A DNA stretch of 64,000 nucleotides from an uncultured Candidatus Saccharibacteria bacterium (GTDB taxonomy: Bacteria; Patescibacteriota; Doudnabacteria; UBA920), in contig CAZEKH010000002.1 of assembly GCA_964512925.1 (NCBI GenBank), positions 122,505 to 186,504 of the forward strand. Reading direction: 5' to 3'. Every line of letters begins with the position of its first letter. Position 1 is the first letter of the stretch. Below, piece after piece: positions 12,219 to 45,521 of the stretch. The notes below the pieces were generated by a model. It did not search any database and was not told the origin of the DNA. It was given only the letters and a program-made list of their open reading frames with translations. Both the position numbers and the translations under genes were made by a program.

Positions 12219-12237
12219 AAATTGGGGTCGGTTAAAT

Positions 12238-13425: not shown

Positions 13426-13480
13426 AGTTAATCATTTTAACATATTAACAAATATAACATTTTATCAAATCTTTTATTTT

Positions 13481-13520
13481 CTGTAGGCATCTGTAGTGAA
13501 TTCTTTTTCGTTGTTCTGTA
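13481..13520. promoter_or_regulatory. Three direct CTGTAG repeats upstream of tdh
   Basis: CTGTAG at 13481, 13491 and 13515, in the glmS-tdh intergenic region. Confidence 0.3.
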
Positions 13521-16914: not shown

Positions 16915-16918
16915 ATAG

Positions 16919-17036
16919 TGGGCAGCTACCTACTTTTGCGCTAGCATTCACTAGACTATCATCGGCCAAGATACGTTTGACTTCCGAGTTCGGGATGGGA
17001 TCGGGTCGTTCCTTACCTTGAAATGCCACCCGCCAC
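16919..17036 (-). rRNA. rrf: 5S ribosomal RNA
   Basis: The reverse complement contains the conserved CCCGATCCCATCCCGAACTCGGAAGT 5S core. Confidence 0.8.
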
Positions 17037-17101
17037 CCCGCCTTTTCTATGAAAGGGCGGGATAACTGATTGCATTAGATATAGCTTCCGCGTTTATCTG
17101 C

Positions 17102-17120
17102 ATCCGCCAGCTGGCGGATC
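17102..17120. repeat. Palindrome ATCCGCCAGCTGGCGGAT in the 23S-5S spacer
   Basis: Identical to the palindrome at 21308..21324 on the other side of the 23S gene. Confidence 0.7.
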
Positions 17121-17235
17121 CGCGTTGTCTAATATAAATTGAATATTGGGTACAGCAAATTTGAAAAGTTGAACCGCTCAGAATGGCTGATATAAAATCA
17201 AAGCCACAAATCGCTAGTCAAAATAGATTAAAACT

Positions 17236-20868
<3,633 letters not shown>

Positions 20869-24324: not shown

Positions 24325-25713
24325 TTAATAAGCTTCAACCTCTACAATTCTGGCTGTGCCTCCGACGCCGCTTGTTACATTTATTCTGATTTTTGAAGTT
24401 GTAACAAAAGGAAAAGTTATTTGCTTCCAAATTTTGTTATTACCTATTATATTTCCACCAGTAACCAGCTGCCAAGCGCTTCCATCCCAGTACTGGACCT
24501 GAAAATCAACAATGCCATAGGAGGAAAAAGTCATCGCCAAATCCGGATCAACCGGATTGGAAGCATAAGCATCCTGCAAAGTAATCACATCAATCTCATT
24601 GATATTTCTTAGGACCGGATTGGCGGCCGCGGTGTTATCCGTGAAATCAATTTGCAGCCAATCAGGCAAAACAAAGCTTGAATTCCAACCGTTGCCAGTA
24701 TCCCAATTTATACCTGTTCTATCACCGTTTATCGTTGCTGCCGGCGAAAATATACAGCAGGTATTGGAAGCCGACGCCCTGCCCCCGTTTGCCTGCAAGG
24801 CATAGTTTATGCGCGCTGAAGTTTCTCCTTCTTCCGGGATAACAACTCGAATTTTTCTCGTTACTTGGCTATTTCTGGCAGAAACATTTACCGCCGTCTC
24901 TCCTACCAAAGGGATACCTTTTGGACTTAAACCGGCAGTATCAGTAAAAGCTTCCAGCTGCACATATAAGGGATTTGTGCCGTTATAGTTATAAACTATA
25001 ATCTCCTGTTGCTTGGTAGGATCAAGAGTAAATTCACCATATAGTCCGGGGTCTAACGGGCTATTAACATAATACTTACCGTCGTTTCCATCCGGAGACC
25101 AATACTCAGTCGAAGAAACATCGCTACAGGCTGGAGTTAAATATGAAAGATTTGGATCGAACTCACAAACATAAACTGCCATTTTATCATTGTTGCCGCT
25201 GGGCAGATAAGTAAACTTTATTTTGCCGAAACCGCTTCCGGCAACGCTGCAAATCGGATCCGCGGATAAAGGATCTAAGGGGTCTGTAATAGGGCTCGGG
25301 CAAAGCAAATTAAAAAGCGGATAGCGGTTGGAGCTGGCGGCAAAGGAATTGGAACTTGCAGCAACTTTCACCTGATACACCTGCGGGGTTTCCTGGCTTT
25401 CTGTGCTGGATAAGTTAACAGCGCCCAGCAAATTGGTATAACTAAACGTACAACTGGAGCAAGTAGAGACTTTTCTTTTAATTTTAAACAAAGCTTCTTC
25501 AGTTACAGCATCCGCGCCGACAATAGCAGCTTCTGTTCTAAGTCCATCGCCCGAAACTTTTATTTCACCCAATAGAATCGCTGCAATGCTAAAACTGATG
25601 GCTAAAATAGCCGACAATATGATTATAGAAAGCAGTAAAGTCACTCCCTCTTGGGAAGACAAGGTAGATTTTTTATATTTGCTAAAAATCCAAGGTCTAT
25701 TGGGGTATATCAT
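24325..25713 (-). CDS. Large pilin-like protein with a C-terminal discoidin (F5/8 type C)-like lectin domain; candidate pilus tip adhesin
   Basis: Pilin-like hydrophobic N-terminus (EGVTLLLSIIILSAILAISF). A C-terminal ~130 aa with W/Y/G spacing (VDFQVQYWDGSAWQLV...IRINV) looks like a galactose-binding fold. Last gene of the minor-pilin block. Confidence 0.55.
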   Translation of the reverse strand: MIYPNRPWIFSKYKKSTLSSQEGVTLLLSIIILSAILAISFSIAAILLGEIKVSGDGLRTEAAIVGADAVTEEALFKIKRKVSTCSSCTFSYTNLLGAVNLSSTESQETPQVYQVKVAASSNSFAASSNRYPLFNLLCPSPITDPLDPLSADPICSVAGSGFGKIKFTYLPSGNNDKMAVYVCEFDPNLSYLTPACSDVSSTEYWSPDGNDGKYYVNSPLDPGLYGEFTLDPTKQQEIIVYNYNGTNPLYVQLEAFTDTAGLSPKGIPLVGETAVNVSARNSQVTRKIRVVIPEEGETSARINYALQANGGRASASNTCCIFSPAATINGDRTGINWDTGNGWNSSFVLPDWLQIDFTDNTAAANPVLRNINEIDVITLQDAYASNPVDPDLAMTFSSYGIVDFQVQYWDGSAWQLVTGGNIIGNNKIWKQITFPFVTTSKIRINVTSGVGGTARIVEVEAY

Positions 25714-26401
25714 ATTTATTTATACTGACTGAAGTCTGATAATAAATCTCTTTTGTTTCGCCTGTTGGCAAATTGACTGAAAAACGCATCAATATCTGGA
25801 CAAAGGGCTGTATTTTAGGGTAGTCGGAAGAATAACTGGAACAACCCGGAGGCTTTATTATATAAGGGTCACAAGTAGGCTTAACCGTGAAAGCAAGCTG
25901 GGTAATTTTAAAATTTGAAGGGTTTAAAATTTGGGGAGTATTACCTTCTTTTAAAACCACTAAAGTTCCGTTGGTATGAGTAAACCCGCTGCCCACATAA
26001 TTGCCATTTTGATCTCCGAAATATATGCATTGATGAAAGCCTTCATTGTCAATGATGCTTAGTCTGTTGTCTTTACCGTTCCCGCTGAGGCCATAATAGT
26101 TATCCCCCACATTGGCAATTTTGAGGCACGGACCAATATCTGAGCTTCTTGGCGCGTCGTGCGTACCATTCATCCCAAAATCAATCTCGCCATTTCGGAT
26201 ATTTTTTGCCAATGTTTCGGCAAAATTCCTCATTCCCTGAGAAGCTTGCCTTAAAGCTTCGCTTTTTCTGTTGATTTTTAAAACATAATTAAACAAGCTC
26301 ATCAACGAAGAAACCACAACAGCAAAAATGACCGTGGAAACTAAAATTTCCATTAAAGTAAATCCTGATCTATTTATTTTTTGCATTTTATACTGTTTCA
26401 T
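25697..26401 (-). CDS. Type IV minor pilin (prepilin-type N-terminus)
   Basis: GFTLMEILVSTVIF class III signal motif. Confidence 0.75.
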   Translation of the reverse strand: MKQYKMQKINRSGFTLMEILVSTVIFAVVVSSLMSLFNYVLKINRKSEALRQASQGMRNFAETLAKNIRNGEIDFGMNGTHDAPRSSDIGPCLKIANVGDNYYGLSGNGKDNRLSIIDNEGFHQCIYFGDQNGNYVGSGFTHTNGTLVVLKEGNTPQILNPSNFKITQLAFTVKPTCDPYIIKPPGCSSYSSDYPKIQPFVQILMRFSVNLPTGETKEIYYQTSVSINKYDIPQ

Positions 26402-26431: not shown

Positions 26432-27157
26432 TCAGTAATTTTTCCAATTAGTTAAATACTCCTGGAGCTCCACGCGACAAGAAGCTTTGGGAATTTTCCC
26501 TACTGACTCGTCCCAATCATCGAGTTTTGGACATTTTTTAGTTTCTGACCACCAAACTCGGGAAACAATTTTAAGCCTTTGAAAATTTGTTCTATTATAC
26601 GGCTGGGTAGTAGAATCCTCTGTAATTGTAATTTTTCTGTAAAAACCCGAATTGCCATTTGAAACTCCATTTATTACATCTGACATACTGTAATACCCTG
26701 TAAAGCTTGGACTGTCAATATCGGAACGAAAATCCAGACCCCATTTACCCCCGGTTGTGTTGTCATCTTTATATTGCCAATATTTATTTAGATTGGGATC
26801 TAAGATAAGCCTGGTACTTTTATTGGCTCCCGCCTGCCTGATATCATAACCCGCATTACCTGACGGATTCAACCATTCTGGGTAGCATTTGCCATTGTTA
26901 GAACCCGACAAAAAATTATAGCAATTGGTTGCTATAGTGGATTTAAGCCAGTTAGTATCGCGCATATTTTTAAATGCTTCAATACCTTCCCTAGCCAAAG
27001 CAGTAGCAACAATTTGTTGGGTGATGTTACTGGAAGCTGATAAGGCATATATAGCTAAGCCGGTCGCAGCGGTAATACCCATTGTTAAAATAAACACCGC
27101 GGCCAAGGTTTCAATGATAGTTTGTCCAGCCTGATTTTTTTTAGAAAAATACTTCAT
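26432..27157 (-). CDS. Type IV minor pilin
   Basis: GQTIIETLAAVFIL prepilin-like N-terminus. Confidence 0.7.
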   Translation of the reverse strand: MKYFSKKNQAGQTIIETLAAVFILTMGITAATGLAIYALSASSNITQQIVATALAREGIEAFKNMRDTNWLKSTIATNCYNFLSGSNNGKCYPEWLNPSGNAGYDIRQAGANKSTRLILDPNLNKYWQYKDDNTTGGKWGLDFRSDIDSPSFTGYYSMSDVINGVSNGNSGFYRKITITEDSTTQPYNRTNFQRLKIVSRVWWSETKKCPKLDDWDESVGKIPKASCRVELQEYLTNWKNY

Positions 27158-27160: not shown

Positions 27161-27883
27161 TTACTGAAAAGTAATTGCTCCCGACAAACCGTTAACTGTA
27201 ATAGTTTTATATAAGCTACCGGATTTGTTGGTCAGCCTGATAGTCATCACCGAATCCCCGCTGGCCGCAGTAGCTGAACCGCCGCCAGTATCATTACCTA
27301 CGTATTGAGTGATCTGAGCATAGTCATCGGTATTGTTTGCAAATCCATTGCTCACACAATTTTCGTTATATATTATTTTTCCATATGGGACCTTGAAGGC
27401 TAAAAGGGCGCAAGAAGAAGGAGTTTGCGAGGTAAATCCGGCCGGCCTTTGAATGCAGACACCAGAACTTAAGCAGGCGACGCTGCTATAAGCGCCAATC
27501 CTGACATCTTGTGGCAACTTTATGGTTTCTATGGTAATCAGCCTCACCGGCGGACTGGTAACATTATACACAGCCTGAACAACATATTCTGTTGGATTAT
27601 TTAGATCAAATTTTAACAAATAATATTCTGCCGGGGTATTGTATGCAACATTTCTTGAATACAAAGCGCTGCTTTGTATCTCCCTGATTTTACTTACCAT
27701 CTGACTTTGAGCCAATTTTAAATTTCTTTGCGCTCTTTGACCGGCAATGTTTGCTGTCACCAAACCCATCACAATACCCATTATGAGCAAAACCATTGTT
27801 AGCTCCATTAAAGAAAACCCAGGATTTTTTCCAAATCCTGCCAGAGCTCGCTTTAACAATGCTTTTTTATATAATATTAACAA
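27161..27883 (-). CDS. Type IV minor pilin
   Basis: GFSLMELTMVLLIMGIV prepilin motif. Confidence 0.75.
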   Translation of the reverse strand: MLILYKKALLKRALAGFGKNPGFSLMELTMVLLIMGIVMGLVTANIAGQRAQRNLKLAQSQMVSKIREIQSSALYSRNVAYNTPAEYYLLKFDLNNPTEYVVQAVYNVTSPPVRLITIETIKLPQDVRIGAYSSVACLSSGVCIQRPAGFTSQTPSSCALLAFKVPYGKIIYNENCVSNGFANNTDDYAQITQYVGNDTGGGSATAASGDSVMTIRLTNKSGSLYKTITVNGLSGAITFQ

Positions 27884-27973: not shown

Positions 27974-28777
27974 CTAAAAACCCAAGAAATTTATGTACCA
28001 ATTAAATATTTGATCGCCGTAAAATAAGGAGATTAAAGCGCCCAGGCTTAAAAATACCCCGAAAGGCAATTTGCTCTGCAAAGTTTTTTTGCCAAAAAAT
28101 AAAAGGGGTAGGGAAACCAAAGTTCCCAAAAAAAACGACAAGAACCAGGCAACCCCGATTTTAGGCCAGGAGAGAGTCAATCCTAAAAAAAACGCGTACT
28201 TTACATCCCCAAAACCCATCCAACGTCCTTCCGAAAAATACCAAATAAAAAACAATGGTGCGGCAGCGGCAATTCCCGAAATCAGACCAAAAGCCAATTC
28301 CCCGGTTAAACTAAACCAATTGCCTGTAATAAAAACGTCTATTATCAAAAGCAAAAAGAGAATAAAAATTCCGGGGTACAATAAAACTTCATCTAAAATT
28401 AAAAAATGTTCAAAATCAATAATAGCGACAACTAAAAATACGCATAGCAATACTAAATATTTCACTAAAATTAAATACTCATAAGCTGTTTGAGGTGGAA
28501 AAAAATAATATGTTAGGCAAAATAACACTCCAGTCAAAAATTCCACTGTCGGATAACGGGGAGAAATTTTCTTTTTGCAATTTGCGCATTGTCCAAAAAG
28601 AAAAATATAGCTAAAAAGAGGAACCAACTGCCAGCCTTTCAAAGTCTGTTTGCAGCTCGGGCAATGTGATCTGCCTCTCAAAGTCTCGTCTTGAGGCATA
28701 CGTAAAATAACAACGTTTAAAAAACTTCCGAACAATAATCCTAAAATAAAATAAACCGCGTACAATATTGGCTCCAT
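27974..28777 (-). CDS. pilD: Prepilin peptidase (A24 family, with N-terminal Zn-binding CxxC pairs)
   Basis: CPSCKQ...CANCKK motif and a polytopic membrane domain with the FGDVK aspartate motif. Confidence 0.85.
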   Translation of the reverse strand: MEPILYAVYFILGLLFGSFLNVVILRMPQDETLRGRSHCPSCKQTLKGWQLVPLFSYIFLFGQCANCKKKISPRYPTVEFLTGVLFCLTYYFFPPQTAYEYLILVKYLVLLCVFLVVAIIDFEHFLILDEVLLYPGIFILFLLLIIDVFITGNWFSLTGELAFGLISGIAAAAPLFFIWYFSEGRWMGFGDVKYAFFLGLTLSWPKIGVAWFLSFFLGTLVSLPLLFFGKKTLQSKLPFGVFLSLGALISLFYGDQIFNWYINFLGF

Positions 28778-28791: not shown

Positions 28792-30807
28792 TTATTCAAA
28801 AATCAAAGTTTCCAGCACAGTTGGTATATAAACCTGCTTAAAATCCTTGGCTTGTTTAGAGCTTTGAGCTATATGCTTGACCAGCTCCATACCCGGATAT
28901 TTTTGAAAAGCTTGATTTAAAATTATCTTCATCTGTTTCTCCATCCCTTCCAGCTGGTAAATCCTTGCCAAAAGAAGCATTGAAGTTATAGAGTATGAAC
29001 TCAGCCTAACTCCGACTTTGGCATATTCCCTTGCTTCTTTGAGCCTTCCGTCTTCAGCGATATAAAAAGCCTGGTGAGTCCACCTCAGGCCATAGAATTT
29101 GTCTTTTTCCAAAGCAGAATTCATTTCTTCAATGGATTTTTTTAAAAATTCTCGCTGGCCGGTCCTGTCATAAGCTAAAAAATTCAGCTTTGAAGCCAAA
29201 TAATCAGTTTTAGCATCCTGAGGGATCAGCCGTTTAAACTTCGAAATTTTTTGTTCCAATACCTTTTCGTCAACGCCATCTCTTAGCATATCTGAAGCGA
29301 TTTTATAACTTTGCGACGCCAAATTATTTGGCGCAAGCCTGCTGGACCATAAAAGCAGTTTTGAAGAAGCCTGAAATTTTTGTTGAAAAAATTTGGTCCG
29401 CCCTTGCATAAACAAATGATCAGCCAAAGTATATGAAATTCCAACCATTAACAAACAAGCAGCTAAAAACCCTAATAACATTCTAGTTACCGGATTAAGA
29501 CCAATATTTGTTGGGAGGCATCTTTTTGAAAACATCACTGCCAGATAAAAACCAAGCAGTAAAAAACAAGCCGAGGATACCGGATTAAAAGCAGCTGAAA
29601 TATACCAAGCTAAAACCCCCAAACCAATTGATAGTAAATAAAATTTTTCCTCAATTGCCAGATTATAATCCTCTTCAGACAGAATTTTTTGCCTTAAACT
29701 CCTGACAACTAAAAATAAACCGGAAAAGCCAAAGGCTAAAAACCAGATTAGAAATGGCAATCCTAAAGTAGCGCCCATATTTAAAAACAAATTATGAGCA
29801 TCGTCAAAAACTCCGTTTTGGTCCGATAAAGCCGCGCTTCTTTGATTTTCAAAAAATAACTGGAAATTTCCAGGACCAACTCCGGTTAGCGGATGCTGGG
29901 TTATAGCCGTAAGGGCGATGTCCCACACAAAAAATCTTAAATTTATATTGGTTTCTGACAAATTTAAGCTTGCTTGCAGGCTTTGCGGCCGTGAAATTGA
30001 GTTAGTCTGCCAAAGCAAAGCCAAACTAAAAAACCCAAGAAATAGCGCGGCTAATATCTTTCTTAAGTTAAAACGAAAAATTGCCAATGATACGGGCGTC
30101 ACGACCGCCAAAAAAACCAAAGCCAGCCAGCCTGCCCTACTGGACAACAGACAAATTCCTGCAACAATAAAAAAACTGCCAAAAATATAATATACCCTTG
30201 CCTTCAAAGATTTGGCAGAAAAAATCAACGGCAAAGACAAAGGCAAAACCGCTGATAAAAACATTGTGGAAAAATTCGGATTGCCTAACAAACTGGGCGC
30301 GCGGGCAAACACTGTTGTATCCCCAACCCCGTTATAAAAACCTACACCATAAGACTGGAGTACGGCAATCAGGCCGACAACAGTAGCATCAAAAAAAAGT
30401 ACTTTATAAAATACACTTAATTTTTTATAAATATTTTGCGTGGAAAAAAAAATAATTGTGAAAACAAATACAAACCAAAAAATAAAACTATTATCCAGCC
30501 TTGGGTAACTGCCTAACAAGCTGTTAATCAAATTTTGAGAGTAAATTAAACTTGGCAATAAAAGCAATGCCCCTAAAAGACAAAACCCAATAAATTTTTT
30601 ATTTGATTGCAAAACTTTAGCCTTTATACTGACCACAATCGGCGCTGACAAACTTACAAACCAAACTGCCAGTTTTACTGTTTCAAATTTTTCATAGGAA
30701 AGTACACTGAAAGCCAATGGGACTAAAAGTAGCAAAAAAAACAAGGCTGAAAAAGTCTGGTCCTCATAAAAAGGCAGTCTTGGAATTTTTATTTGTTTAA
30801 ACATCAA
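28792..30807 (-). CDS. Polytopic membrane protein with an O-antigen ligase (Wzy_C) domain and C-terminal TPR repeats; candidate pilin O-oligosaccharyltransferase
   Basis: Twelve or more TM segments, a central periplasmic loop, and a TPR-like C-terminus. Sits between pilD and the major pilin gene. Confidence 0.55.
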   Translation of the reverse strand: MMFKQIKIPRLPFYEDQTFSALFFLLLLVPLAFSVLSYEKFETVKLAVWFVSLSAPIVVSIKAKVLQSNKKFIGFCLLGALLLLPSLIYSQNLINSLLGSYPRLDNSFIFWFVFVFTIIFFSTQNIYKKLSVFYKVLFFDATVVGLIAVLQSYGVGFYNGVGDTTVFARAPSLLGNPNFSTMFLSAVLPLSLPLIFSAKSLKARVYYIFGSFFIVAGICLLSSRAGWLALVFLAVVTPVSLAIFRFNLRKILAALFLGFFSLALLWQTNSISRPQSLQASLNLSETNINLRFFVWDIALTAITQHPLTGVGPGNFQLFFENQRSAALSDQNGVFDDAHNLFLNMGATLGLPFLIWFLAFGFSGLFLVVRSLRQKILSEEDYNLAIEEKFYLLSIGLGVLAWYISAAFNPVSSACFLLLGFYLAVMFSKRCLPTNIGLNPVTRMLLGFLAACLLMVGISYTLADHLFMQGRTKFFQQKFQASSKLLLWSSRLAPNNLASQSYKIASDMLRDGVDEKVLEQKISKFKRLIPQDAKTDYLASKLNFLAYDRTGQREFLKKSIEEMNSALEKDKFYGLRWTHQAFYIAEDGRLKEAREYAKVGVRLSSYSITSMLLLARIYQLEGMEKQMKIILNQAFQKYPGMELVKHIAQSSKQAKDFKQVYIPTVLETLIFE

Positions 30808-31196
30808 TACTTTATTGTGATTGTATTCTGACCTTTGGATGCAACATTAAAATCATCTGGCAGGCAAAAATTTATTGTAGCCATTTTTTTGTCTGCCCTG
30901 GTGTAATTTAAAGGCTCAGGACACTCTTTAATTTTAAAAGTATTCGGCTTGCCGGACAAATATTGGGAAATAACTTTTTCGTTGCCAAACTCATTAGCCG
31001 TGGGCAGGCGGTCGTTATCTTTATAAAAAAAATCCAGCGCCATTTTCATTTCCTGCGCCGCCATAAAAACCGCCTCGCTTTCTGCCTCTCTTCTTCCCGA
31101 GCTTGCCCCTAAAAAAATACTTATAAATAAAAAAGCAGCCACTCCGATGACTGTTATAAAAATTTTTATCTGATTGTTTGTCATTTGAAAATCCAT
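30804..31196 (-). CDS. Divergent pilin paralogue lacking the prepilin cleavage motif
   Basis: GRREAESEAVFMAAQEMKMALDFFYKDNDRLPT aligns with PilA SARAKSRDAKRLADVRQLASAMELIFNDAGAYPT. The N-terminus has a TM helix but no G-1/F+1/E+5. Confidence 0.5.
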   Translation of the reverse strand: MDFQMTNNQIKIFITVIGVAAFLFISIFLGASSGRREAESEAVFMAAQEMKMALDFFYKDNDRLPTANEFGNEKVISQYLSGKPNTFKIKECPEPLNYTRADKKMATINFCLPDDFNVASKGQNTITIKY

Positions 31197-31225
31197 CTCA
31201 AGGCGGCTTTTAAAGCCGCCTTGAG
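31197..31225 (-). terminator. Terminator after the major pilin gene
   Basis: ctcaaggcggcttt/taaagccgccttgag perfect hairpin. Confidence 0.7.
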
Positions 31226-31232
31226 AAGAAAC

Positions 31233-31799
31233 TTACTGAATACCAGCAGGGGTTAAAGTGTGCACACCAGCAGCATATCCGCCAGTTGCGTCACCCAAAC
31301 AGAAAGTAATTGTATAGTTAGCGCCTACATCAGGAGCTGCGTACTGATAGCTGTTTGTAGTTGATGTACAAGCAGCGCCAGAACGGTTGTCAGGAGGAGT
31401 CGGAGCTGAAGGAATTAACCCGATATAAGTCGGGGTTAAAGTATAACCGGTTGCTCCGGTTGTAGCTGTTATAGACCTAAGTATACCACCAGCTGCGCTA
31501 CCCATAACATAAGCATCTCCAGTTGTGTCGCAAGCTCCGCTTGTACCACAAGTCGGATAAGCGCCGGCATCGTTGAAGATAAGTTCCATAGCTGAAGCCA
31601 GCTGTCTTACGTCAGCAAGCCTCTTGGCGTCCCTGGACTTGGCTCGAGCCGAGTTTAGGGCAAGTAAAACCACAGATGCCAAAAGACCAATAATGGCAAT
31701 AACCACTAAAAGTTCAATTAAAGTAAAACCTTTTATGTTTTTGTTTCTCAATTTTTTCACCCCCGTTCTTAAAATGTTTGAAAATATTGCTACTTTCAA
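31233..31799 (-). CDS. pilA: Type IVa major pilin
   Basis: KGFTLIELLVVIAIIGLLA canonical class III signal. The leader length is uncertain, since the first in-frame ATG gives 24 aa. Confidence 0.85.
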   Translation of the reverse strand: MKVAIFSNILRTGVKKLRNKNIKGFTLIELLVVIAIIGLLASVVLLALNSARAKSRDAKRLADVRQLASAMELIFNDAGAYPTCGTSGACDTTGDAYVMGSAAGGILRSITATTGATGYTLTPTYIGLIPSAPTPPDNRSGAACTSTTNSYQYAAPDVGANYTITFCLGDATGGYAAGVHTLTPAGIQ

Positions 31800-31868: not shown

Positions 31869-33074
31869 CTAACCAGCTGTGCTGGCTAAGTTATAAATTG
31901 GTAGCAGTACCCCTGCCACCAAAGCTCCCACTCCCAAACCTAAAATAATCATTATCAAAGGTTCCAATAGGGTGGTTAAAGTGGCAATCTTTGCATCTAC
32001 TTCTTTTTCATAAAAAGACGCGAGTTTATCCATAATATCGTCCAATTGAGCAGTCTGCTCGCCTACCCGCACCATTTGTGTGACAATATTAGGAAACTCC
32101 CTATGCCCGGACAATCCCTCGCTGATGCTTTTTCCAGCCGTAATCTTACTGACCGTATCGTTTAAAATTTCCCGATATATCACATTGTTGATAACATCTC
32201 CGACTATCTGCAAAGCTTTGATAATCGGGATGCCGCCGATAACTAAAGTGGATAAATTTCGGGAAAATCTGGCTAAATATATTTTTTCAAAAACATCTCC
32301 CAGTATAGGTAAATGAATTTTCATTTTATCCCAGTGGTACCTGCCAAATTCGGTAGACACAAAAAACTTTACTCCCATAGCGATGGCTATGAAAGCTAAA
32401 ATCACCATCCACCAAAACTTGTCAAAAAAATGCGTAAAAGAAATAAGTACTTTGGAGACCGTAGGAAGCTCCCCACCCTGCTCTTCTAAAACCGCGGTTA
32501 ATTTTGGCAAAACAAACTTAAACATCAAAACTCCGACAATGCCCAAAGCGCCCAAAACAAAAAGCGGATAAGTCAAGGCGCTTTTTACCTTTCCCCTTAA
32601 CTCATAGTCCTTTTCCAGCTGGGCTGCCAGATAATTCAGTGATTTATCCAAATTTCCCGATACTTCTCCTGAACGAACCAAGCTGGTATAAACATTGGTA
32701 AAAACCTTATCGTGCTTGGTCATTGCCAAGGATAAACTTTCACCATTTTCCACCGAAGAAATCAAATCTCTGGTAATAGTTAAAAGATACCGATTGCTAA
32801 TTTGTTCTTCTAAAATCCGCAAAGCCTGAATCAACGGCACACGGGCAGAAATCAAGGTTGCCAATTGTCTGGAAAATAAAACCACGTCCTTATTGCTGAC
32901 TGACTTGCCAAATGGATTTAGTTTTTGAAAGACATCTTCCTCTTTCTTGGCTAAAGAAAGAATCGTCAGCATATTTTCCGCCAAAAGCTGTTCAGCCCTG
33001 GCCTGGTCGGTTGCTACAACTATGCCTGACTTAATTTTTCCATCTTGAGTTTTTGCTTTATAAAGAAATTTCAT
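31869..33074 (-). CDS. pilC: Type IV pilus inner-membrane platform protein (GspF family)
   Basis: Two GspF repeats and three TM helices. 401 aa. Confidence 0.9.
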   Translation of the reverse strand: MKFLYKAKTQDGKIKSGIVVATDQARAEQLLAENMLTILSLAKKEEDVFQKLNPFGKSVSNKDVVLFSRQLATLISARVPLIQALRILEEQISNRYLLTITRDLISSVENGESLSLAMTKHDKVFTNVYTSLVRSGEVSGNLDKSLNYLAAQLEKDYELRGKVKSALTYPLFVLGALGIVGVLMFKFVLPKLTAVLEEQGGELPTVSKVLISFTHFFDKFWWMVILAFIAIAMGVKFFVSTEFGRYHWDKMKIHLPILGDVFEKIYLARFSRNLSTLVIGGIPIIKALQIVGDVINNVIYREILNDTVSKITAGKSISEGLSGHREFPNIVTQMVRVGEQTAQLDDIMDKLASFYEKEVDAKIATLTTLLEPLIMIILGLGVGALVAGVLLPIYNLASTAG

Positions 33075-33104: not shown

Positions 33105-34175
33105 CTAACTTACTAAAGATAGAAAATAATCATTGTCCAAAACGTGATTTTGAGCGACTTCAAAATCCACCTGACCCTGCTTGACCAGACCAGCCAAAGT
33201 TTTATCCAAAGGCACCATACCTTCTTCCAAAGAAGTATGTATGATATTGGCAATTTCATAAATTTTATTGTCTCTGATCACATTTCTAACCGCGTGATTG
33301 GCAACCATTATTTCATATGCCGGAACCCGCCCGCCGCCGATTTTAGGTAGAAGCCTTAAAGAAATAACTCCAGTTAACACAGAAGCCAGCTGTCCGCGCA
33401 CCTGCTGCTGCTGGCCCGATGGAAACACGTCAACAATACGGTCAATGCTTTGAGCCGCGTCATTGGTATGCAAAGTGGCAAAAACCAAGTGTCCGGTTTC
33501 AGCTATGGTCAAAGCTGCGGACACAGATTCAAAGTCGCGCATCTCGCCAAGCAAAACCACGTTAATATCTTCACGAAGCGCGGCTTTTAAAGCTCCCTCA
33601 AAAGTCGGCGTATCCAGGTATAATTCGCGCTGTGAAATAATTGAGCGATTCGGAGTAAACATATATTCCACCGGATCTTCAATAGTCAAAATATGCTCCG
33701 CGCGAGTATTGTTTATTTCATTGATCATCGCAGCTAAAGCGGTTGATTTACCGTGCCCCGTCGGTCCGACTACCAAAACCAACCCCTGTCGCCTCTCAAT
33801 AAATTTTCGGAAAATCGGGGGCAGGTTCAATTCTTCGATGGTTTTAATATGATTCGGGATGGTTCTTAGCGCCACGCCCAGCACGCCCTTTTGGCGGTAA
33901 GCATTTACGCGAAAACGGATGTTGTCCTTAAAAGCGTAGGAAAAATCAATATGCATCTGCTTTTCAAACAAGCCTTTTTGCACATCGGTCAAAAGAATGT
34001 TTAGCAAATCCAAAATCGTATCATTGCTCAATACCTGATAACTATCCAAACGAATCAATGCCGTATCCACGCGAATAATAGGCGGCTCTCCGACCATTAA
34101 ATGTAAATCCGAAGCATCTCTTTCTAAAACCAATGACAACAATTTATTGAGTTCTAACTCGCTGGCTTTATACAT
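33105..34175 (-). CDS. pilT: Twitching-motility retraction ATPase
   Basis: Walker A GPTGHGKST. About 356 aa, which is PilT size rather than PilB size. Confidence 0.85.
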   Translation of the reverse strand: MYKASELELNKLLSLVLERDASDLHLMVGEPPIIRVDTALIRLDSYQVLSNDTILDLLNILLTDVQKGLFEKQMHIDFSYAFKDNIRFRVNAYRQKGVLGVALRTIPNHIKTIEELNLPPIFRKFIERRQGLVLVVGPTGHGKSTALAAMINEINNTRAEHILTIEDPVEYMFTPNRSIISQRELYLDTPTFEGALKAALREDINVVLLGEMRDFESVSAALTIAETGHLVFATLHTNDAAQSIDRIVDVFPSGQQQQVRGQLASVLTGVISLRLLPKIGGGRVPAYEIMVANHAVRNVIRDNKIYEIANIIHTSLEEGMVPLDKTLAGLVKQGQVDFEVAQNHVLDNDYFLSLVS

Positions 34176-34193: not shown

Positions 34194-34625
34194 TTAAATA
34201 TTTAATATTTGGCAAGCTAACACCACTACATCTTCAGGCCGGCTTAAACGTTTATCCAAATGCCCACAAACCCCGACTGACATAATTTTTTTTAAGGTAG
34301 TATGACTTGCGTCAAAACCCAAAGTCATAATTTTTAACCGAGGAAAATTAGTTCTCAGATTTAACAAAAAATCTTCAGCTTCTTCGGGCTGCTTGGAAAA
34401 AAAATCCAAGCTTAATACTGCTAAAAACGGCTGTTTTTCCTTTATTGCCGGATGAATCGCATCCAGATTCGAGCAGGCATGGATTTGCATTTTTTTTTCG
34501 GCAAAATGCCTCTCGTATATGCCAAGCAAACTTGAAGACGGCTCTGCCACCAAAATCACTCCGGAAAAACCAGGGTTGGATATCAACTCGGAAATATCAA
34601 ATTTTTGTTTAAATATATACGCCAT
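34194..34625 (-). CDS. Stand-alone, probably degenerate CheY-like receiver domain protein
   Basis: Spacing of a receiver fold (ILVAEP..., LAVLSLD, IMTLG, K) but without the acidic DD pair. Sits between pilB and pilT. Confidence 0.45.
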   Translation of the reverse strand: MAYIFKQKFDISELISNPGFSGVILVAEPSSSLLGIYERHFAEKKMQIHACSNLDAIHPAIKEKQPFLAVLSLDFFSKQPEEAEDFLLNLRTNFPRLKIMTLGFDASHTTLKKIMSVGVCGHLDKRLSRPEDVVVLACQILNI

Positions 34626-34626: not shown

Positions 34627-36378
34627 TTATTCCGTAGTTACTCTCATCACTTCGTCCAGAGTGGTCTCGCCCCGAATAATTTTTATTAAACCGTCCTGCT
34701 TCATTGTTATCATCCCCAAAGAAGCCGCGTGCTCGTACATTTTTCTTGAAGAAGATTTTGACAGCACTAATTCCTGTAGTTCAGCGTCAACTGGCAAAAC
34801 CTCATAAATGCCCATACGACCTGCATAACCTGAATTGCCGCATTTTTCACAGCCATGTCCTTTAAAAGTCTTTAGAGTCGCCATATCCAGTCCTTCCAAA
34901 TACTCGTCCGGAACCCCTTTGAGCCCGTCTCGGATTTCTTTTTCGATTCCAGGCAAAATCGGCACTTCCCCTCTGCAGTTAGAACAGATTTTTCTTACCA
35001 ATCTTTGAGCCATCACCACATTGATTGAGGAAGCGAGTAAAAAAGGTTCAATGCCCATATCAATCATTCTCGGCATCGCCCCAATGGAGTTATTGGTATG
35101 CAAAGTGGAAAATACCAAATGCCCGGTCAAGGCAGCGTGCACTGCCAGCTCAGCTGTTTCTTTGTCTCGAATTTCACCCACCATCACCACATTGGGATCT
35201 TGCCTAAGTATGCTCCGAAGACCGGCCGCAAAAGTCAGACCGATTTCCGGATTAATCTGGCTTTGATTTATCCCTTCAATAAAATATTCCACGGGGTCTT
35301 CCAAAGTGATAATGTTGACAGTCGGGGAATTTAAAATGGATAAAATTGCATAAAGCGTGGTAGATTTTCCGCTACCGGTCGGTCCGGTAATTAGAAAAAT
35401 ACCGTGAGTTTTTTTAATGTTTTCTTTTATCCATACCAAAGCGCGCCCGCGTATGCCCAGCTGTTCCAAAGTCGGAACCGAACCGGTCTTATCCAAAATA
35501 CGCATCACAATTTTTTCCCCGTAAATCAAAGGTAAAATGGAAACACGCAAATCAACGGATTTTTTTCCTACATCCATATGAAATCTTCCGTCTTGCGGCA
35601 ACCTGGATTCGTCAATTTTTAAATTGGATAAAATTTTAATTCTTGTAATAATCGCCGCGTGGACGTTTCTAGGCAACATCAAAGATGTATGCAAAATTCC
35701 ATCTATGCGGTATCTGACTCGCACATCTTTTTCCGAAGGTTCAATGTGTATATCTGAAGCATTACCCTCAATGGCATTAGTTAAAATAACTTCCACAATC
35801 TTTATAATCGGTGCTTCTTCAATGACCTGGGGAATATTGGATTTTTCAGCTTCCTGAGCAGACTTTAAACCCCCGCTTTCTTTGGTCTGAATATCTTTTA
35901 GAGCATCGCCCACTACTTTTTTTAGGTTCTTTTTCTTTCCGGAGGCAACTTCAACACCGCTCTCTGAGGCTAAATAAAGCTGAATTTGAAGATTTTGTTT
36001 TTGGCCCAAAAATTCCAAGGCTTCCAGAGCGGACAAATTTCCAGGGTTGGTTATGGCAACCTTTAAAATGCGGTCGCGATTTTCAAACGGAATAAAATTA
36101 TAAAAATTCACCGACTCCGGAGGAATGAGATTTAAAACAGCAGGAGGAATCGTAATTTGTTTTAAATCCACATAAGGTATGTTAAAAAAGGCGGCTTTAG
36201 CTTTGGCTAAATCCTCTTCTTCGATTATTTTTCGCGCAAGAAGCAGCTGGCTCACATTTTGTCCGGTTTCTTTTTCCAGCTTCTCCAGCTGTAAAATCGT
36301 ATCCTCGCTGACAAAACCATTGCTGACTAAAAATTGCCCGAAAGTTTGCGCTACGTTAGTTTTAGCAGCGGTTTCCAT
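34627..36378 (-). CDS. pilB: Type IV pilus assembly ATPase (GspE family) with an N-terminal GSPII_E_N domain and tetracysteine motif
   Basis: Walker A ITGPTGSGKST and CSNC...CEKC. Confidence 0.9.
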   Translation of the reverse strand: METAAKTNVAQTFGQFLVSNGFVSEDTILQLEKLEKETGQNVSQLLLARKIIEEEDLAKAKAAFFNIPYVDLKQITIPPAVLNLIPPESVNFYNFIPFENRDRILKVAITNPGNLSALEALEFLGQKQNLQIQLYLASESGVEVASGKKKNLKKVVGDALKDIQTKESGGLKSAQEAEKSNIPQVIEEAPIIKIVEVILTNAIEGNASDIHIEPSEKDVRVRYRIDGILHTSLMLPRNVHAAIITRIKILSNLKIDESRLPQDGRFHMDVGKKSVDLRVSILPLIYGEKIVMRILDKTGSVPTLEQLGIRGRALVWIKENIKKTHGIFLITGPTGSGKSTTLYAILSILNSPTVNIITLEDPVEYFIEGINQSQINPEIGLTFAAGLRSILRQDPNVVMVGEIRDKETAELAVHAALTGHLVFSTLHTNNSIGAMPRMIDMGIEPFLLASSINVVMAQRLVRKICSNCRGEVPILPGIEKEIRDGLKGVPDEYLEGLDMATLKTFKGHGCEKCGNSGYAGRMGIYEVLPVDAELQELVLSKSSSRKMYEHAASLGMITMKQDGLIKIIRGETTLDEVMRVTTE

Positions 36379-36695: not shown

Positions 36696-37325
36696 TTAGG
36701 GGGCGAAATAATAAGTTTTAAAATTAATCCTAAGCCCTAACTGCCCTTTCCCGGAAGGTGTCATATCCATCCCTGTGATATCCATCAGCCTGCCGGAGTT
36801 TTCTATTTTCTGAAGGAATGATTTGAGTTGAAAAAAATCTCCATAAGCATTGACATTGCAAGATAAAGTTTTCAAAGTTCTCTTGGCATAAAACGGATCA
36901 GTGATAATTTTTTGATCATTGCCATACACCTGCTCTTCTTTGGCAGTAACCGCCACATCGCCTACAGTCACACCTGACTCATTTGCCAAGTTTTGTACTA
37001 AAATTTGAACTTTTGTCCGACGACTGTCTAAAGGCAAGGCTTCGTCTAACATTGCCAACTCAGCGGGAAATTTGCCCATCTTGGCAATCAATCCTTTTAA
37101 AGAAGCCGTTTGCGCCTGGATAGTCCCGCGTTCCTTGACTAAAACTGCCAATTCCGCGCGCTTTTCAGCCAATTCCGCGCGCTTAGGCTTGATCATAAAC
37201 CAAAAAAACAACGCAATAAAAATCAAAACCGCCAGAATTTGAATATTCGTGGATTTAAAAGATCTAACTTCCACGGAAGTTGCAGATTCTTTAGCCGAAC
37301 TTTTTGGCAGGTTAAAATTCATCAT
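36696..37325 (-). CDS. pilO: Type IV pilus assembly protein PilO-like
   Basis: TM helix, coiled coil (AELAEKRAELAVL) and a periplasmic domain. Gene order pilM-N-O. Confidence 0.6.
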   Translation of the reverse strand: MMNFNLPKSSAKESATSVEVRSFKSTNIQILAVLIFIALFFWFMIKPKRAELAEKRAELAVLVKERGTIQAQTASLKGLIAKMGKFPAELAMLDEALPLDSRRTKVQILVQNLANESGVTVGDVAVTAKEEQVYGNDQKIITDPFYAKRTLKTLSCNVNAYGDFFQLKSFLQKIENSGRLMDITGMDMTPSGKGQLGLRINFKTYYFAP

Positions 37326-37333: not shown

Positions 37334-37921
37334 TTATTTGCTTGGCTGGGCAACAAGCCCCTCTTTTCTCAAAATCTGGGAATTAAAATTCATTCTAAAA
37401 TTTACATTTAAATTGCTCTGTCCCAACTTTTCAATTTTATTGATAGCCCCGATTTTAACATTTGAAAAGCTTCGCATAAACTCTAAAGTGTCAAAAAGCT
37501 GGAGCAATTTGTCCAATTCCTGGTTATCTTTCAAATTCACGCTCAAAGCCAAACTGCCATCCTCAGCAACCCGGATATACAAATAATGCGACCCTTTAAT
37601 GCTGAGGTCTGCGATAGCCTTAAAAAAATTGGAAAAATATGGATGCGAAGCGCTGAGATTTTGATAGGCTTTCAGCTGTCCCTGCCTGGATAAAAATTCT
37701 TTCCGCTGGGCCATATTTAAAGCCAGCTTTTTTTCCTGTGCCACCGCGGCTTTGGTTTTCGGAATTTCATTTGTTACTTTTTTTGTATCTAAAAATATCC
37801 AGAGATAATAAGCCACAAACAGCAAGGCAATAAAAGAAACTATTTTTAGTCCGGAGCCCCGGATTTTTAAAAATAAGTCTTCAGTCGAGCTTTTTTGTTT
37901 TAATAAATTGATTTGTGCCAC
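37334..37921 (-). CDS. pilN: Type IV pilus assembly protein PilN-like
   Basis: MAQINLL N-terminus and a single TM helix. Directly follows pilM. Confidence 0.65.
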   Translation of the reverse strand: MAQINLLKQKSSTEDLFLKIRGSGLKIVSFIALLFVAYYLWIFLDTKKVTNEIPKTKAAVAQEKKLALNMAQRKEFLSRQGQLKAYQNLSASHPYFSNFFKAIADLSIKGSHYLYIRVAEDGSLALSVNLKDNQELDKLLQLFDTLEFMRSFSNVKIGAINKIEKLGQSNLNVNFRMNFNSQILRKEGLVAQPSK

Positions 37922-37947: not shown

Positions 37948-38976
37948 TTATTCTGCTCTTAAAGCGAGGCCGATTGCCACAGGTAAATTGCGGGAATAAC
38001 GTTTTAAAACCTGCTCGGCTGAGACTGAAAACGCCACATTTTTCAACGGATTGCCCAATTCCACTGGCATTTTCAGATCCGCAAAAAAATCAATAATGCC
38101 TGGCATATTGCTTCCGCCGCCAGCCAAAATTACCTTATCTAAGCGGATATCCTGCGATACATAAATCGTTAACAGCTGCTTTACCTCATTTTTCACAATA
38201 TTTAACACCGGCTTAACCGCTTCGGGGATAAAAGAAGGGCCATTGATGCCAAAATCTTTCTTAAACTGTTCGGCTCGGCTATGATTTATTCCTAAAGTTT
38301 CTGCAATTTTTGAAGTAATGGTTTCTCCTCCCACATTCAGATTGCGACTCAATTTTAAAACTCCATTTTCAATAATATTCAAACCAGTACTCTTGGCGCC
38401 TATATCTATTATAACACAATTTATCTTTTCTCCCCCGATCAGACTGCGGATTAAAGCCAAAGCTTCAATCTCAGCCGCCTCAGGATGCAAACCAGATATT
38501 TCAAAAAGCTTGCTATAATTCTCTTTAATCTGCTTAGGCACGGCAATCAGCAGAATTTTTTGGCTGGATGTTTGCGCATTTGTATCTGTAACAGTCCAAG
38601 ACAAGTCTATTTCATCCAATGCCAATGGCACGTATTTTTTGGCTTCATACTCCACAGCCCCGTCAAGCTCTTTATCGTTCATCATCGGCAGTTCAATCAC
38701 TGAAGAGAAAACCGCGCTATTGGGAAAACTAATCACAGATCTTTGAGCGCTGATACCCGCTTTTTTTATAAGGGATTTGATCAACTCTGCCATCCTGGCT
38801 AAAGATTCCGGATCGTTTTTTCCGCTTAAAGCTTCCGGAATATTGACTATCCCATAACTCTCCAAAACCCTCTCTCCCGAAGACTTCTGTCCCACCTGGG
38901 CGAGTTTAATGCTGGAGGTTCCGATATCAACCCCTAAAACAGAGCTATGTTTTTTAAACAAACCGGCTAAAAACAT
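37948..38976 (-). CDS. pilM: Type IV pilus assembly protein PilM (actin-like ATPase)
   Basis: VLGVDIGTSSIKLAQV phosphate-1 motif of FtsA/PilM. Confidence 0.85.
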   Translation of the reverse strand: MFLAGLFKKHSSVLGVDIGTSSIKLAQVGQKSSGERVLESYGIVNIPEALSGKNDPESLARMAELIKSLIKKAGISAQRSVISFPNSAVFSSVIELPMMNDKELDGAVEYEAKKYVPLALDEIDLSWTVTDTNAQTSSQKILLIAVPKQIKENYSKLFEISGLHPEAAEIEALALIRSLIGGEKINCVIIDIGAKSTGLNIIENGVLKLSRNLNVGGETITSKIAETLGINHSRAEQFKKDFGINGPSFIPEAVKPVLNIVKNEVKQLLTIYVSQDIRLDKVILAGGGSNMPGIIDFFADLKMPVELGNPLKNVAFSVSAEQVLKRYSRNLPVAIGLALRAE

Positions 38977-39108: not shown

Positions 39109-39184
39109 TGGTGGACCCTACCGGGCTCGAACCGGTCACCCCCACATTGCAAATGTGGTGCTCTACCAAATGAGCTAAGGGCCC
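39109..39184 (-). tRNA. tRNA-Ala (anticodon TGC)
   Basis: The reverse complement GGGCCCTTAGCTCA...TTTGCAA...GGTTCGAGCCC...CCACCA folds as a cloverleaf with the G3:U70 identity pair and an encoded CCA. Confidence 0.9.
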
Positions 39185-39214
39185 TAATCATTCTGAATTA
39201 AATGCTCAATATGA

Positions 39215-39439
39215 CTATACGGCTCCCGAAGGGAGCATATTAAACAACCATAAAACCGACAACACACACATCGCAAAGCCAAAAAGTTTCCACCAAGTAT
39301 AAGTTCCGGAAGCCATCCCGCCACCAAGATATTTTTCAGCAAAATCAATCTTTCCGGTAATTTGATCAGTCAAATATACCGCATATTTCATAAGCAGAAT
39401 ACCGGCTGCAAATAAAAGTGGGGAAAAAATGAAGCGCAT
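39215..39439 (-). CDS. Small hydrophobic ORF between the two tRNAs
   Basis: 74 aa with two predicted TM helices. No other support. Confidence 0.3.
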   Translation of the reverse strand: MRFIFSPLLFAAGILLMKYAVYLTDQITGKIDFAEKYLGGGMASGTYTWWKLFGFAMCVLSVLWLFNMLPSGAV

Positions 39440-39488
39440 ACTTTATTTTAACTGCTTAACATTTACAATTTTTACTCTTTGACCGTTA

Positions 39489-39565
39489 TGGTGGGCGTAC
39501 CAAGATTCGAACTTGGGACCTCGTCATTATCAGTGACGCGCTCTAACCAACTGAGCTATACGCCC
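39489..39565 (-). tRNA. tRNA-Ile (anticodon GAT)
   Basis: The reverse complement GGGCGTATAGCTCAGTTGGTTAGAGC...CTGATAA...GGTTCGAATC...CCACCA. Encoded CCA. Confidence 0.9.
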
Positions 39566-44612: not shown

Positions 44613-44737
44613 AAAAAATTTTAGTAATTGTGGGTAACTTGACGCATCCTAAAGTATGTTATAATATAAGTAATCAATAAGTAGGCCTCTTATAAGCGAA
44701 AGTCGGCTCCATGCCGTGCGTTGGGAAACCAACCTAG

Positions 44738-45520
44738 CTATAAGGGGCTTATTTTATTTATTGAGAAGGTGTTACCTCTGCTGTAAAAATTATTGGGATA
44801 TTTATCTGTATCATAAACGTCACAAACGAATTTTACTTTACTTTCAATAAATTTATAATAACGATCCTCGCCTCTTACAAAAGCTCTTTGAATAGCCCAA
44901 TTCATATAATCAACTATTTGCAAACATGCTTCTCCATATGGACTTTGTGGGAGAATGGCTATTTTTGAATCAATTTTCATTTTATGCTCAGTTTCAAATG
45001 AATTTTTTGCGGTTTGGATAGCTTCCTCCAAAGGAGCCTGGCGAGTTTTATTACCCCTAACAGCAAAGTAAATAAAAATTTGTTCAGCAACGTGTAATTT
45101 ATTTTTGAACAACTTAATTATTAAATCGTCATAGAATAAATTTTCTTTGCCTTTATGACGCACCTTAAAAATATTTTCAATTTTTCTTGCAACAATGAAT
45201 TCCGCTTTAAAATCTAAACCTAAAATAGTTTTATAAACTTTCTCTCTAATTTCCGGCGTATCGTCTTTAGCATGAAACGCTAAATGACTTTTCTTTAGCG
45301 AAGGAATATCTTTAAGATACTCATCGTTCTTTATCTCCTCATGAAGTTTGAATATTGCATTTCTTAAAGGTTCTGGGTTAGTTGTTTTGATGAAGCCAAG
45401 TAATAAAATTTTTGAACATCCCTCTTTGCCAACAATATACCTACCATATCTATCATAAAAAGTAGAATCACCGGCCTCATCCACAAAAAAATACTGGGTT
45501 TTTACATCATTCAACTTCAT
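44738..45520 (-). CDS. DUF3800-like protein inserted between mod and res
   Basis: N-terminal YFFVDEAGD and C-terminal LQIVDYMNWAIQRAF match the DUF3800 pattern. Confidence 0.5.
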   Translation of the reverse strand: MKLNDVKTQYFFVDEAGDSTFYDRYGRYIVGKEGCSKILLLGFIKTTNPEPLRNAIFKLHEEIKNDEYLKDIPSLKKSHLAFHAKDDTPEIREKVYKTILGLDFKAEFIVARKIENIFKVRHKGKENLFYDDLIIKLFKNKLHVAEQIFIYFAVRGNKTRQAPLEEAIQTAKNSFETEHKMKIDSKIAILPQSPYGEACLQIVDYMNWAIQRAFVRGEDRYYKFIESKVKFVCDVYDTDKYPNNFYSRGNTFSINKISPL

Positions 45521-45521
45521 A

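Follow-up and report, generated by a model that had tools for sequence, protein, structure and literature searches.

A Wzy_C-TPR membrane protein encoded in a Doudnabacteria type IV pilus operon: a candidate pilin-directed O-oligosaccharyltransferase

The four families of bacterial protein O-oligosaccharyltransferases (O-OTases) all carry the Wzy_C domain and all have pilins as native acceptors, and the cited examples all come from Proteobacteria (PMC9829042). TfpO (440-470 aa) and TfpM (420-440 aa) glycosylate a C-terminal Ser/Thr of the pilin, and PglL (550-600 aa) and PglS (520-550 aa) use internal sites (PMC9829042). Among pglL homologs, 21 of 31 adjoin pilin genes (PMC3643930). Here we analyze a 64,000-nt stretch of DNA (hereafter the window) from an uncultured Candidatus Saccharibacteria bacterium of the Doudnabacteria lineage (GenBank assembly GCA_964512925.1, contig CAZEKH010000002.1, positions 122,505 to 186,504 of the forward strand), in which a gene for a Wzy_C membrane protein with a C-terminal tetratricopeptide repeat (TPR) domain is embedded in a type IV pilus operon. 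Our findings suggest that the product, referred to as Wzy_C-TPR, is very likely a protein O-OTase of some kind, and that it is probably a lineage-specific one directed at the pilins of this pilus.

Few surface machines are conserved in the candidate phyla radiation (CPR), or Patescibacteria, and type IV pili are one of them. Cultivated Saccharibacteria use these pili to attach to their hosts and to move, and pilin (O-)glycosylation has been predicted there by software only, with no enzyme named (PMC12206443). Our literature searches retrieved no description linking O-antigen-ligase-family genes to CPR pili or pilus operons. The attachment of sugars to pilus proteins is not known to have been studied outside the Gram-negative Proteobacteria. 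Pilin glycosylation by such an enzyme in CPR bacteria would strike a specialist as plausible rather than shocking.

Fold, candidate catalytic residues and TPR domain

The gene and the parts of its product are listed below, in window coordinates.

28792..30807, (-) strand: Wzy_C-TPR gene, 671 aa from a TTG start; supported by the open reading frame (ORF) call, Pfam, homologs and the structure model
29425..30807, (-) strand: membrane core, residues 1-461; 13 transmembrane (TM) helices, WaaL-like fold
29740..30180, (-) strand: Pfam Wzy_C domain, residues 210-356; holds the family-invariant R224, R291, D335, D336, H338 and N339
29761..29991, (-) strand: large extracytoplasmic loop between TM9 and TM10, residues 273-349; predicted catalytic loop, on the basis of topology
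28792..29424, (-) strand: C-terminal TPR domain, residues 462-671 (~200 aa); predicted extracytoplasmic

An alternative ATG start one codon after the TTG, at 30804, gives a 670-aa form that is 100% identical to a database protein (P0001), and a word-indexed search returned ~42 full-length homologs. The Pfam Wzy_C profile (PF04932) matched the protein with 67.1 bits against a gathering cut-off of 31.7 (E = 2e-18), and 13 long TM helices were agreed upon by a hydropathy scan and by an AlphaFold2 model of the full-length protein, built on 40 homologs (pLDDT 90.7, pTM 0.91). These results bear out a preliminary description of the window, which had recognized a 671-aa polytopic protein of the O-antigen ligase family at exactly these coordinates and had named the Wzy_C profile as the search by which that assignment would stand or fall. 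The positive-inside tally favored an orientation with the N-terminus in the cytoplasm, counting 10 Lys/Arg in the inside loops versus 3 in the short outside loops. Given this orientation and the 13th TM helix, which precedes the TPR domain and thereby places it outside the cytoplasm, we predict a shared location on the outer face of the membrane for the catalytic loop and the TPR domain.

Both sequence and structure comparisons relate the membrane core to WaaL. The best solved structure by sequence was WaaL of Cupriavidus metallidurans (CmWaaL, 7TPG), with E = 1.4e-6 for the single sequence and 1.2e-14 for the family profile. When residues 1-470 were modelled alone with AlphaFold2 (pLDDT 90.2) and compared with the PDB by Foldseek, 7tpg_B was the sole match below 1e-3 (E = 5.8e-6, probability 1.00, TM-score 0.56); the SEDS protein FtsW came next at 1.7e-3, and the remainder was transporter noise. 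The Foldseek listing for the full-length model was dominated by TPR proteins, and WaaL emerged with residues 1-470.

An alignment of 40 homologs that are 24-35% identical to the query left only 20 invariant columns. These include R224, R291, W295, G309, G311, D335, D336, H338, N339 and G349, and also G175-N176 in the outward loop preceding TM6. The spacing His338-Asn339-x9-Gly349 is invariant across the family and corresponds to H[NSQ]x9G, which we take to be a ligase/OTase motif rather than a polymerase pattern. In the alignment with CmWaaL, R291 and H338 pair with an Arg and a His, and R224 lies one column off an Arg. Residues R215, R288 and H338 of Escherichia coli WaaL are functionally important and are conserved as R224, R298 and H349 in Neisseria meningitidis PglL (PMC3643930). 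Judged from the CmWaaL alignment and the similar numbering, R224, R291 and H338 are plausible candidate equivalents of the Arg/Arg/His set of WaaL and PglL. A Wzy_C profile, a WaaL-like polytopic fold with a large loop and these Arg/Arg/His residues together place the protein in the Wzy_C/O-antigen-ligase superfamily.

In the model, residues 478-652 of the C-terminal domain fold into ten antiparallel helices, corresponding to about five repeats. Taken alone, the sequence of the protein gives no significant TPR match (best Pfam E = 0.11), but the TPR character is borne out at the family level, as the preliminary description had proposed: many of the 42 full-length homologs match Pfam TPR_1, TPR_2, TPR_8 or TPR_19, and the family profile aligned with single stretches of solved or consensus TPR proteins at ~1e-12 to 1e-13. 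Among the TPR proteins that Foldseek retrieved with the full-length model were MamA (TM-score 0.78) and the TPR domain of OGT.

When residues 1-470 were compared exhaustively with 1.84 billion cluster representatives, 117 clusters matched at E<=1e-30. Nearly all of the best 150 matches are 640-690 aa long, and this near-uniform length argues that the combination of Wzy_C and TPR is fixed in a sizeable family. A wide gap in the word-indexed search separated the family (E<=1e-41) from the next Wzy_C proteins (E ~1e-6). Wzy_C-TPR appears to represent a distinct O-OTase-like family confined to one CPR class.

The pilus operon, its relatives and its surroundings

The Wzy_C-TPR gene belongs to a co-directional operon on the (-) strand that encodes a complete type IV pilus set, in the order pilMNO-B-T-C-pilA-orf130-Wzy_C-TPR-pilD-minor pilins. 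Its other features, in the direction of transcription, are the following.

37948-38976, (-) strand: pilM; Pfam PilM_2
37334-37921, (-) strand: ORF in the pilN position
36696-37325, (-) strand: pilO-like gene; Pfam PilO
34627-36378, (-) strand: pilB, named from its translation and conserved synteny
34194-34625, (-) strand: receiver-like ORF, 143 aa; weak Response_reg match, E = 0.019
33105-34175, (-) strand: pilT, named from its translation and conserved synteny
31869-33074, (-) strand: pilC, named from its translation and conserved synteny
31233-31799, (-) strand: pilA, the major type IV pilin; N_methyl Pfam match
31196-31226, (-) strand: hairpin with a 14-bp stem, including 8 G-C pairs
30804-31196, (-) strand: orf130, 130 aa; aligned to PilA by hhalign
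27974-28777, (-) strand: pilD, prepilin peptidase; Pfam A24_N_bact and Peptidase_A24
27161-27883, 26432-27157 and 25697-26401, (-) strand: three minor pilins; N_methyl matches
24325-25713, (-) strand: pilin-like protein, 462 aa, with an N-terminal TM helix; the order of the pilin block is kept in relatives

The stop codon of orf130 overlaps the start of the Wzy_C-TPR gene (TGATG). The preliminary description had located the gene between pilD and pilA; pilD does follow directly, its start lying 14 nt past the Wzy_C-TPR stop, and pilA does lie upstream, but orf130 intervenes.

The operon position is shared by relatives. A family-seeded scan with one genome per species yielded 52 loci, all from metagenome-assembled genomes of Doudnabacteria or other Patescibacteria, and tblastn with the operon proteins of the window found the same gene order throughout. 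pilA lies upstream in 46 of the 46 loci with enough sequence and pilD downstream in 48 of the 48 such loci, with a gap to pilD of no more than 215 nt in 32 loci. Since this sample had been chosen through the Wzy_C-TPR gene itself, a second scan, of metagenome contigs, was seeded with PilC. Among loci whose PilC is at least 59% identical, 10 carry the gene and two (L068 and L079) do not, and six are too short to decide. The gene was found in none of ~25 loci from other CPR lineages with PilC 34-41% identical; these distant loci have the same pilM...B-T-C-A-D...ligA layout, with pilD close after pilA. Its presence in close relatives and in none of the ~25 distant operons thus marks Wzy_C-TPR as a lineage-specific accessory module, not a core part of the pilus machine. 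The gene lies inside a pilus operon in all 62 loci where it is present, and none was found outside one. The two relatives without it (PilC 60-67% identical) read pilA-orf130-pilD, and in L079 a 118-aa ORF that by its sequence looks like a DUF559-type endonuclease stands in place of the Wzy_C-TPR gene.

A second line of evidence comes from glycan-synthesis genes in the same intergenic position. In 14 of the 52 loci and in the metagenome locus L064 (15 relatives), the Wzy_C-TPR gene and pilD are held apart by an insertion of 1.7-4.8 kb. The core of this cassette, in all except L023, is a Bac_transf phosphoglycosyltransferase of 430-445 aa (178 bits, Pfam), which was found in L021, L022, L029, L031, L032, L041-L044, L046-L048, L051, L052 and L064. 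Its partners vary: an FkbM methyltransferase (6 loci), a GT2 glycosyltransferase with a class I methyltransferase, a methyltransferase with a GDP-mannose 4,6-dehydratase and a GT4 glycosyltransferase, or GT2 alone. The minimal cassette consists of one methyltransferase and one phosphoglycosyltransferase. Short, variable cassettes built around an initiating phosphoglycosyltransferase are a signature of lipid-linked oligosaccharide assembly, and without Wzz they fit an oligosaccharide rather than a polymer. Their location directly beside a gene with a WaaL fold argues that Wzy_C-TPR consumes the cassette product, and their variability points to a pilus-linked glycan that is not the same in every lineage. 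In the PilC-seeded sample, the cassette phosphoglycosyltransferase, glycosyltransferase and FkbM proteins were matched only in L064, which has the Wzy_C-TPR gene, and no pilus locus lacking that gene gave a match to any of these three.

L023 carries a different insertion. Between its Wzy_C gene and pilD (11987-13501 of that locus) lies a gene for a 504-aa polytopic protein with a sub-threshold match to PMT_2, a GT-C family (E = 0.0026); homologs are found near ligA in L019, L027, L033, L034 and L038. This protein may be a second, TfpW-like type of glycosyltransferase.

The gene product that intervenes between PilA and Wzy_C-TPR, orf130, has no Pfam match. By hhalign, its orthologs align with PilA orthologs from the TM helix through the C-terminal disulfide region (probability 98.9%, E = 2e-17), which identifies orf130 as a paralog of the pilin. 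A TM helix, a FYxDQNRYP-type motif and two disulfide cysteines are present in orf130, and the G|FTLIE prepilin cleavage motif is absent; it may be an uncleaved, membrane-anchored pilin-like protein. orf130 is kept in 46 of the 52 relatives, as well as in the two relatives that lack the Wzy_C-TPR gene. The paralog separates pilA from the Wzy_C-TPR gene in 37 of the 52 loci, and in the others the gene comes immediately after pilA. Where a lineage has a glycan cassette, orf130 stands behind the cassette, just ahead of pilD. An apparent fusion of orf130 to the Wzy_C gene in L021 was rejected, as the DNA there reads TAA followed directly by ATG.

Several other features of the operon merit description. 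The hairpin fills the short interval from the pilA stop to the start codon of orf130 and has no T-run tail; it may serve as a partial terminator, an attenuator or a transcript stabilizer that gives an excess of pilA transcript. The 143-aa ORF between pilB and pilT is kept in most relatives and may represent a receiver domain that has degenerated. The 462-aa protein, the last of the pilin block, may be a tip adhesin; its C-terminal ~130 aa give a non-significant match to a NedA-like galactose-binding domain (E = 0.15).

According to Pfam, the other sizeable ORFs of the window encode central metabolism, GlmS, a nucleotidyltransferase, LigA, RecQ, a restriction-modification-like block and large secreted proteins. 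The restriction-modification-like block (42354-47075, (-) strand) comprises a ResIII/SNF2-type helicase (752 aa), a DUF3800 protein and an N6_N4 DNA methylase, and has a lower G+C content of 0.33-0.36. The presumably secreted proteins (52170-61854) are a 1474-aa protein with Laminin_G_3 and DUF2341, a 525-aa subtilase and a 1018-aa protein with LCAT and Big_13; L028 has a homolog of the last inside its pilus operon, between orf130 and the Wzy_C gene. In the region 16917-20855 on the (-) strand, the 23S rRNA match spans 3632 nt against a model of 2925 nt, an excess of ~700 nt, and neither an ORF of at least 110 aa nor an intron family at threshold was detected inside the match. The classic rRNA spacer tRNAs, tRNA-Ile(GAT) and tRNA-Ala(TGC), lie at 39109-39565 on the (-) strand, 18 kb upstream of the 23S-5S pair, and the whole pilus operon, ligA and a LysM gene stand between them. 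No 16S rRNA gene was found in the window or beside these tRNAs, where a G+C-rich ORF encodes GMP synthase.

Proposed mechanism and competing explanations

The preliminary description had raised the possibility of pilin O-glycosylation. Our analysis supports it with a Wzy_C domain on a WaaL fold, invariant candidate catalytic residues, an active site and a TPR domain that both face outward, a fixed operon place in 52 genomes and the association with glycan cassettes in 15 relatives. We propose that a glycan would first be built on polyprenyl phosphate at the cytoplasmic face by the Bac_transf phosphoglycosyltransferase together with glycosyl- and methyltransferases; in the genome studied here, the glycan-building genes would have to sit elsewhere. 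The lipid-linked glycan would then be flipped outward by some flippase. The 13-TM core would bind this donor, presumably a polyprenyl pyrophosphate-linked glycan, in an extracytoplasmic pocket containing R224, R291, D335, D336 and H338, a role assigned by analogy with WaaL and PglL. Meanwhile, the extracytoplasmic TPR domain would dock the folded, membrane-anchored pilin, much as the TPR motifs of WsfB and PglL have been suggested to dock proteins (PMC2943079). Finally, the glycan would be moved en bloc to a Ser/Thr of PilA, and possibly of the minor pilins, before PilD processing and assembly.

PilA offers candidate acceptor residues away from its terminus. The preliminary description had suggested Ser/Thr-rich C-terminal pilin residues and cited the ending TLTPAGIQ; PilA does end in ...HTLTPAGIQ, but its last residue is Gln, not Ser/Thr, as it is in nearly all of ~50 orthologs. 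Because PilA does not end in Ser/Thr, internal Ser/Thr residues of the PglL type would be the only option. Ser and Thr make up 25% of the globular part of PilA here, with an ortholog mean of 24% versus 13% in orf130. A conserved loop rich in Ala, Pro, Ser and Thr (IP[ST]APxPxDG) precedes the first disulfide cysteine, and the Thr residues in HTLTPAGIQ are conserved in the ortholog set. Sites glycosylated by neisserial PglL lie in Ala/Ser/Pro-rich or turn regions. We speculate that the IP[ST]APxPxDG loop and the C-terminal Thr residues could be acceptor sites.

A number of observations weigh against a pilin-directed O-OTase. First, the PilA proteins of L068 and L079 keep the conserved loop and the C-terminal Thr/Ser, so that no co-variation of candidate acceptor sites with loss of the gene was seen in these two relatives. 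Second, PglL profiles, which the preliminary description had also put forward as a check, gave a negative result: PglL_A (PF15864) and Wzy_C_2 (PF11846) had no match at E<=0.1 with the whole protein or at E<=10 with its halves, within the limits of HMMER filters that may hide very weak matches, and no PglL- or TfpO-specific model matched in the Pfam and NCBIfam scans of the protein. Third, Wzy_C-TPR departs from the classical pilin-specific enzymes TfpO and TfpM. These are 420-470 aa long with no C-terminal domain, whereas Wzy_C-TPR has 671 aa including a 210-aa TPR region; their pilins need a C-terminal Ser/Thr, a rule that is inapplicable to a PilA ending in Gln; and here a pilin-paralog ORF stands between pilA and the gene. 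Fourth, when 46 ORFs of the window, nearly every one of at least 130 aa, were scanned with Pfam, there was no glycosyltransferase, phosphoglycosyltransferase or lipopolysaccharide (LPS) gene, the last in accord with the preliminary description, which had seen no obvious LPS genes; likewise, the 64-kb window contains no flippase, and tblastn with the cassette proteins of relatives found no glycan-gene match in it. Lastly, gene neighborhood cannot tell a pilin-specific from a general enzyme, and we infer activity, donor and acceptor alike.

The strongest alternative is a general surface-protein O-OTase, whose main acceptors would be other envelope proteins such as the S-layer or adhesins, with pilins one target or none and the operon site serving co-expression. 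PglL enzymes are indeed general O-OTases even where they are encoded beside pilins, WsfB combines Wzy_C with a TPR motif in a Gram-positive bacterium and glycosylates an S-layer protein, our PilA analysis identified no pilin-specific sequon, and large secreted proteins are encoded nearby. We nevertheless consider a general enzyme unlikely, since the gene occurs in the pilus operon in 62 of 62 loci and nowhere else and is always placed between the major pilin and pilD, like the pilin-specific accessory genes of Proteobacteria.

It is less probable still that Wzy_C-TPR ligates or polymerizes glycans on an acceptor other than protein (peptidoglycan, a lipid anchor or a polysaccharide that is being extended), for instance to make a surface polymer for pilus passage or anchoring. 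The Wzy_C family, according to its Pfam description, also contains WaaL ligases and Wzy polymerases, and the adjacent cassettes would suit any product that depends on undecaprenyl pyrophosphate (Und-PP). A WaaL point mutant is reported to ligate peptidoglycan fragments (PMC4296511). However, a Wzy polymerase is expected to co-occur with Wzx and Wzz/PCP, and neither Wzz nor Wzx was present in the window or in the 15 cassettes examined; moreover, the minimal two-gene cassette suggests a very short glycan, and TPR is a protein-binding module. The LPS-ligase role in particular is implausible: CPR bacteria lack PilQ and a Gram-negative envelope (PMC6744442), no LPS genes were found in the window, and an organism of this group, having neither outer membrane nor LPS, offers no lipid A-core acceptor of the WaaL type.

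Other bacteria use TPR proteins, PilF/PilW and TadD among them, to assemble pili, which speaks for a protein that has lost catalysis and become a structural part of a monoderm pilus machine, for example a TPR scaffold replacing alignment or secretin-pilotin components. The absence of PilQ from CPR bacteria (PMC6744442) points the same way. Yet R224, R291, D335, D336 and H338 are invariant at 24-35% identity, glycan-synthesis genes are inserted alongside, and the absence of the gene from two relatives and from all distant CPR pilus operons means that it is not a core structural part; we regard this explanation as very improbable. The preliminary description had also considered an unrelated transporter, and although the sole NCBIfam match is to IctB, another Wzy_C-like family of putative bicarbonate transporters (E = 2.6e-10), a membrane transporter unrelated to glycans is hardly credible given that this match reaches 39.9 bits against a cut-off of 366.4 and is confined to the shared Wzy_C-like region, and that the fold matches WaaL with transporter folds scoring as noise.

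A pilin-directed O-OTase therefore remains our favored assignment for Wzy_C-TPR. A class-wide glycosylation module inside the pilus operon gives a testable handle on pilus decoration in CPR bacteria, which cassettes could vary between lineages. If active, this compact, length-uniform family, distant from PglL, PglS, TfpO and TfpM, could widen the O-OTase toolbox for bioconjugate vaccines and could show how a TPR domain selects protein acceptors in a Wzy_C fold. The chances seem evenly balanced that it constitutes a fifth bacterial class of O-linking OTases, without precedent in CPR/Patescibacteria and, as regards type IV pili, anywhere beyond the Proteobacteria. In such a class, an extracytoplasmic TPR domain would select pilins, and swappable cassettes would diversify the pilus surface and thereby shape host recognition or the evasion of phages and immunity in these episymbionts.

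Comparison with known systems

In the comparisons that follow, Wzy_C-TPR is set apart from PglL, PglS, TfpO, TfpM and WsfB by Pfam signatures and published descriptions rather than by direct alignment. WaaL (7TPG and the E. coli enzyme) is the sole significant match among solved structures, has the conserved Arg and His in a large outward loop and uses an Und-PP-linked donor. It reportedly has 12 TM helices in the 7TPG study. WaaL differs in that it has no extracytoplasmic C-terminal domain, takes as its acceptor lipid A-core, which CPR bacteria are not known to make, and is encoded in LPS core loci, not in pilus operons; the window has no LPS genes, and the Wzy_C-TPR gene has a pilus context in all loci.

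TfpO (PilO) and TfpM, known from Pseudomonas aeruginosa 1244, Acinetobacter and Moraxella, resemble Wzy_C-TPR in their Wzy_C domain, their conserved catalytic His and the location of their genes downstream of the pilin gene in the same orientation. Size, domain content, acceptor rule and, in 37 of the 52 loci, the intervening paralog distinguish them, as set out above.

PglL of Neisseria, Burkholderia, Vibrio and Acinetobacter shares the Wzy_C core with Arg/Arg/His, is larger than WaaL through a C-terminal extension described as having a TPR motif, and is often encoded beside a pilin gene. Unlike PglL, Wzy_C-TPR is without PglL_A and Wzy_C_2, has 671 rather than 550-600 aa and carries a full TPR domain of about five repeats. 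It belongs to a separate sequence family and to a CPR host that has no outer membrane, and its gene is embedded between pilA and pilD.

The S-layer enzymes WsfB of Paenibacillus alvei and WsaB of Geobacillus stearothermophilus are likewise Wzy_C enzymes of bacteria without an outer membrane; WsfB has a C-terminal TPR motif, and WsaB has a neighboring TPR protein, WsaA (PMC2943079). Their loci recall the cassettes described here, with genes for a WsaP-type phosphoglycosyltransferase and for glycosyl- and methyltransferases adjacent (PMC2943079). They differ in acting on S-layer proteins (at Tyr or Thr/Ser) from S-layer glycosylation loci, whereas Wzy_C-TPR is always encoded in a type IV pilus operon. 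The nearest architectural counterparts of Wzy_C-TPR are PglL and, among S-layer enzymes of Gram-positive bacteria, WsfB.

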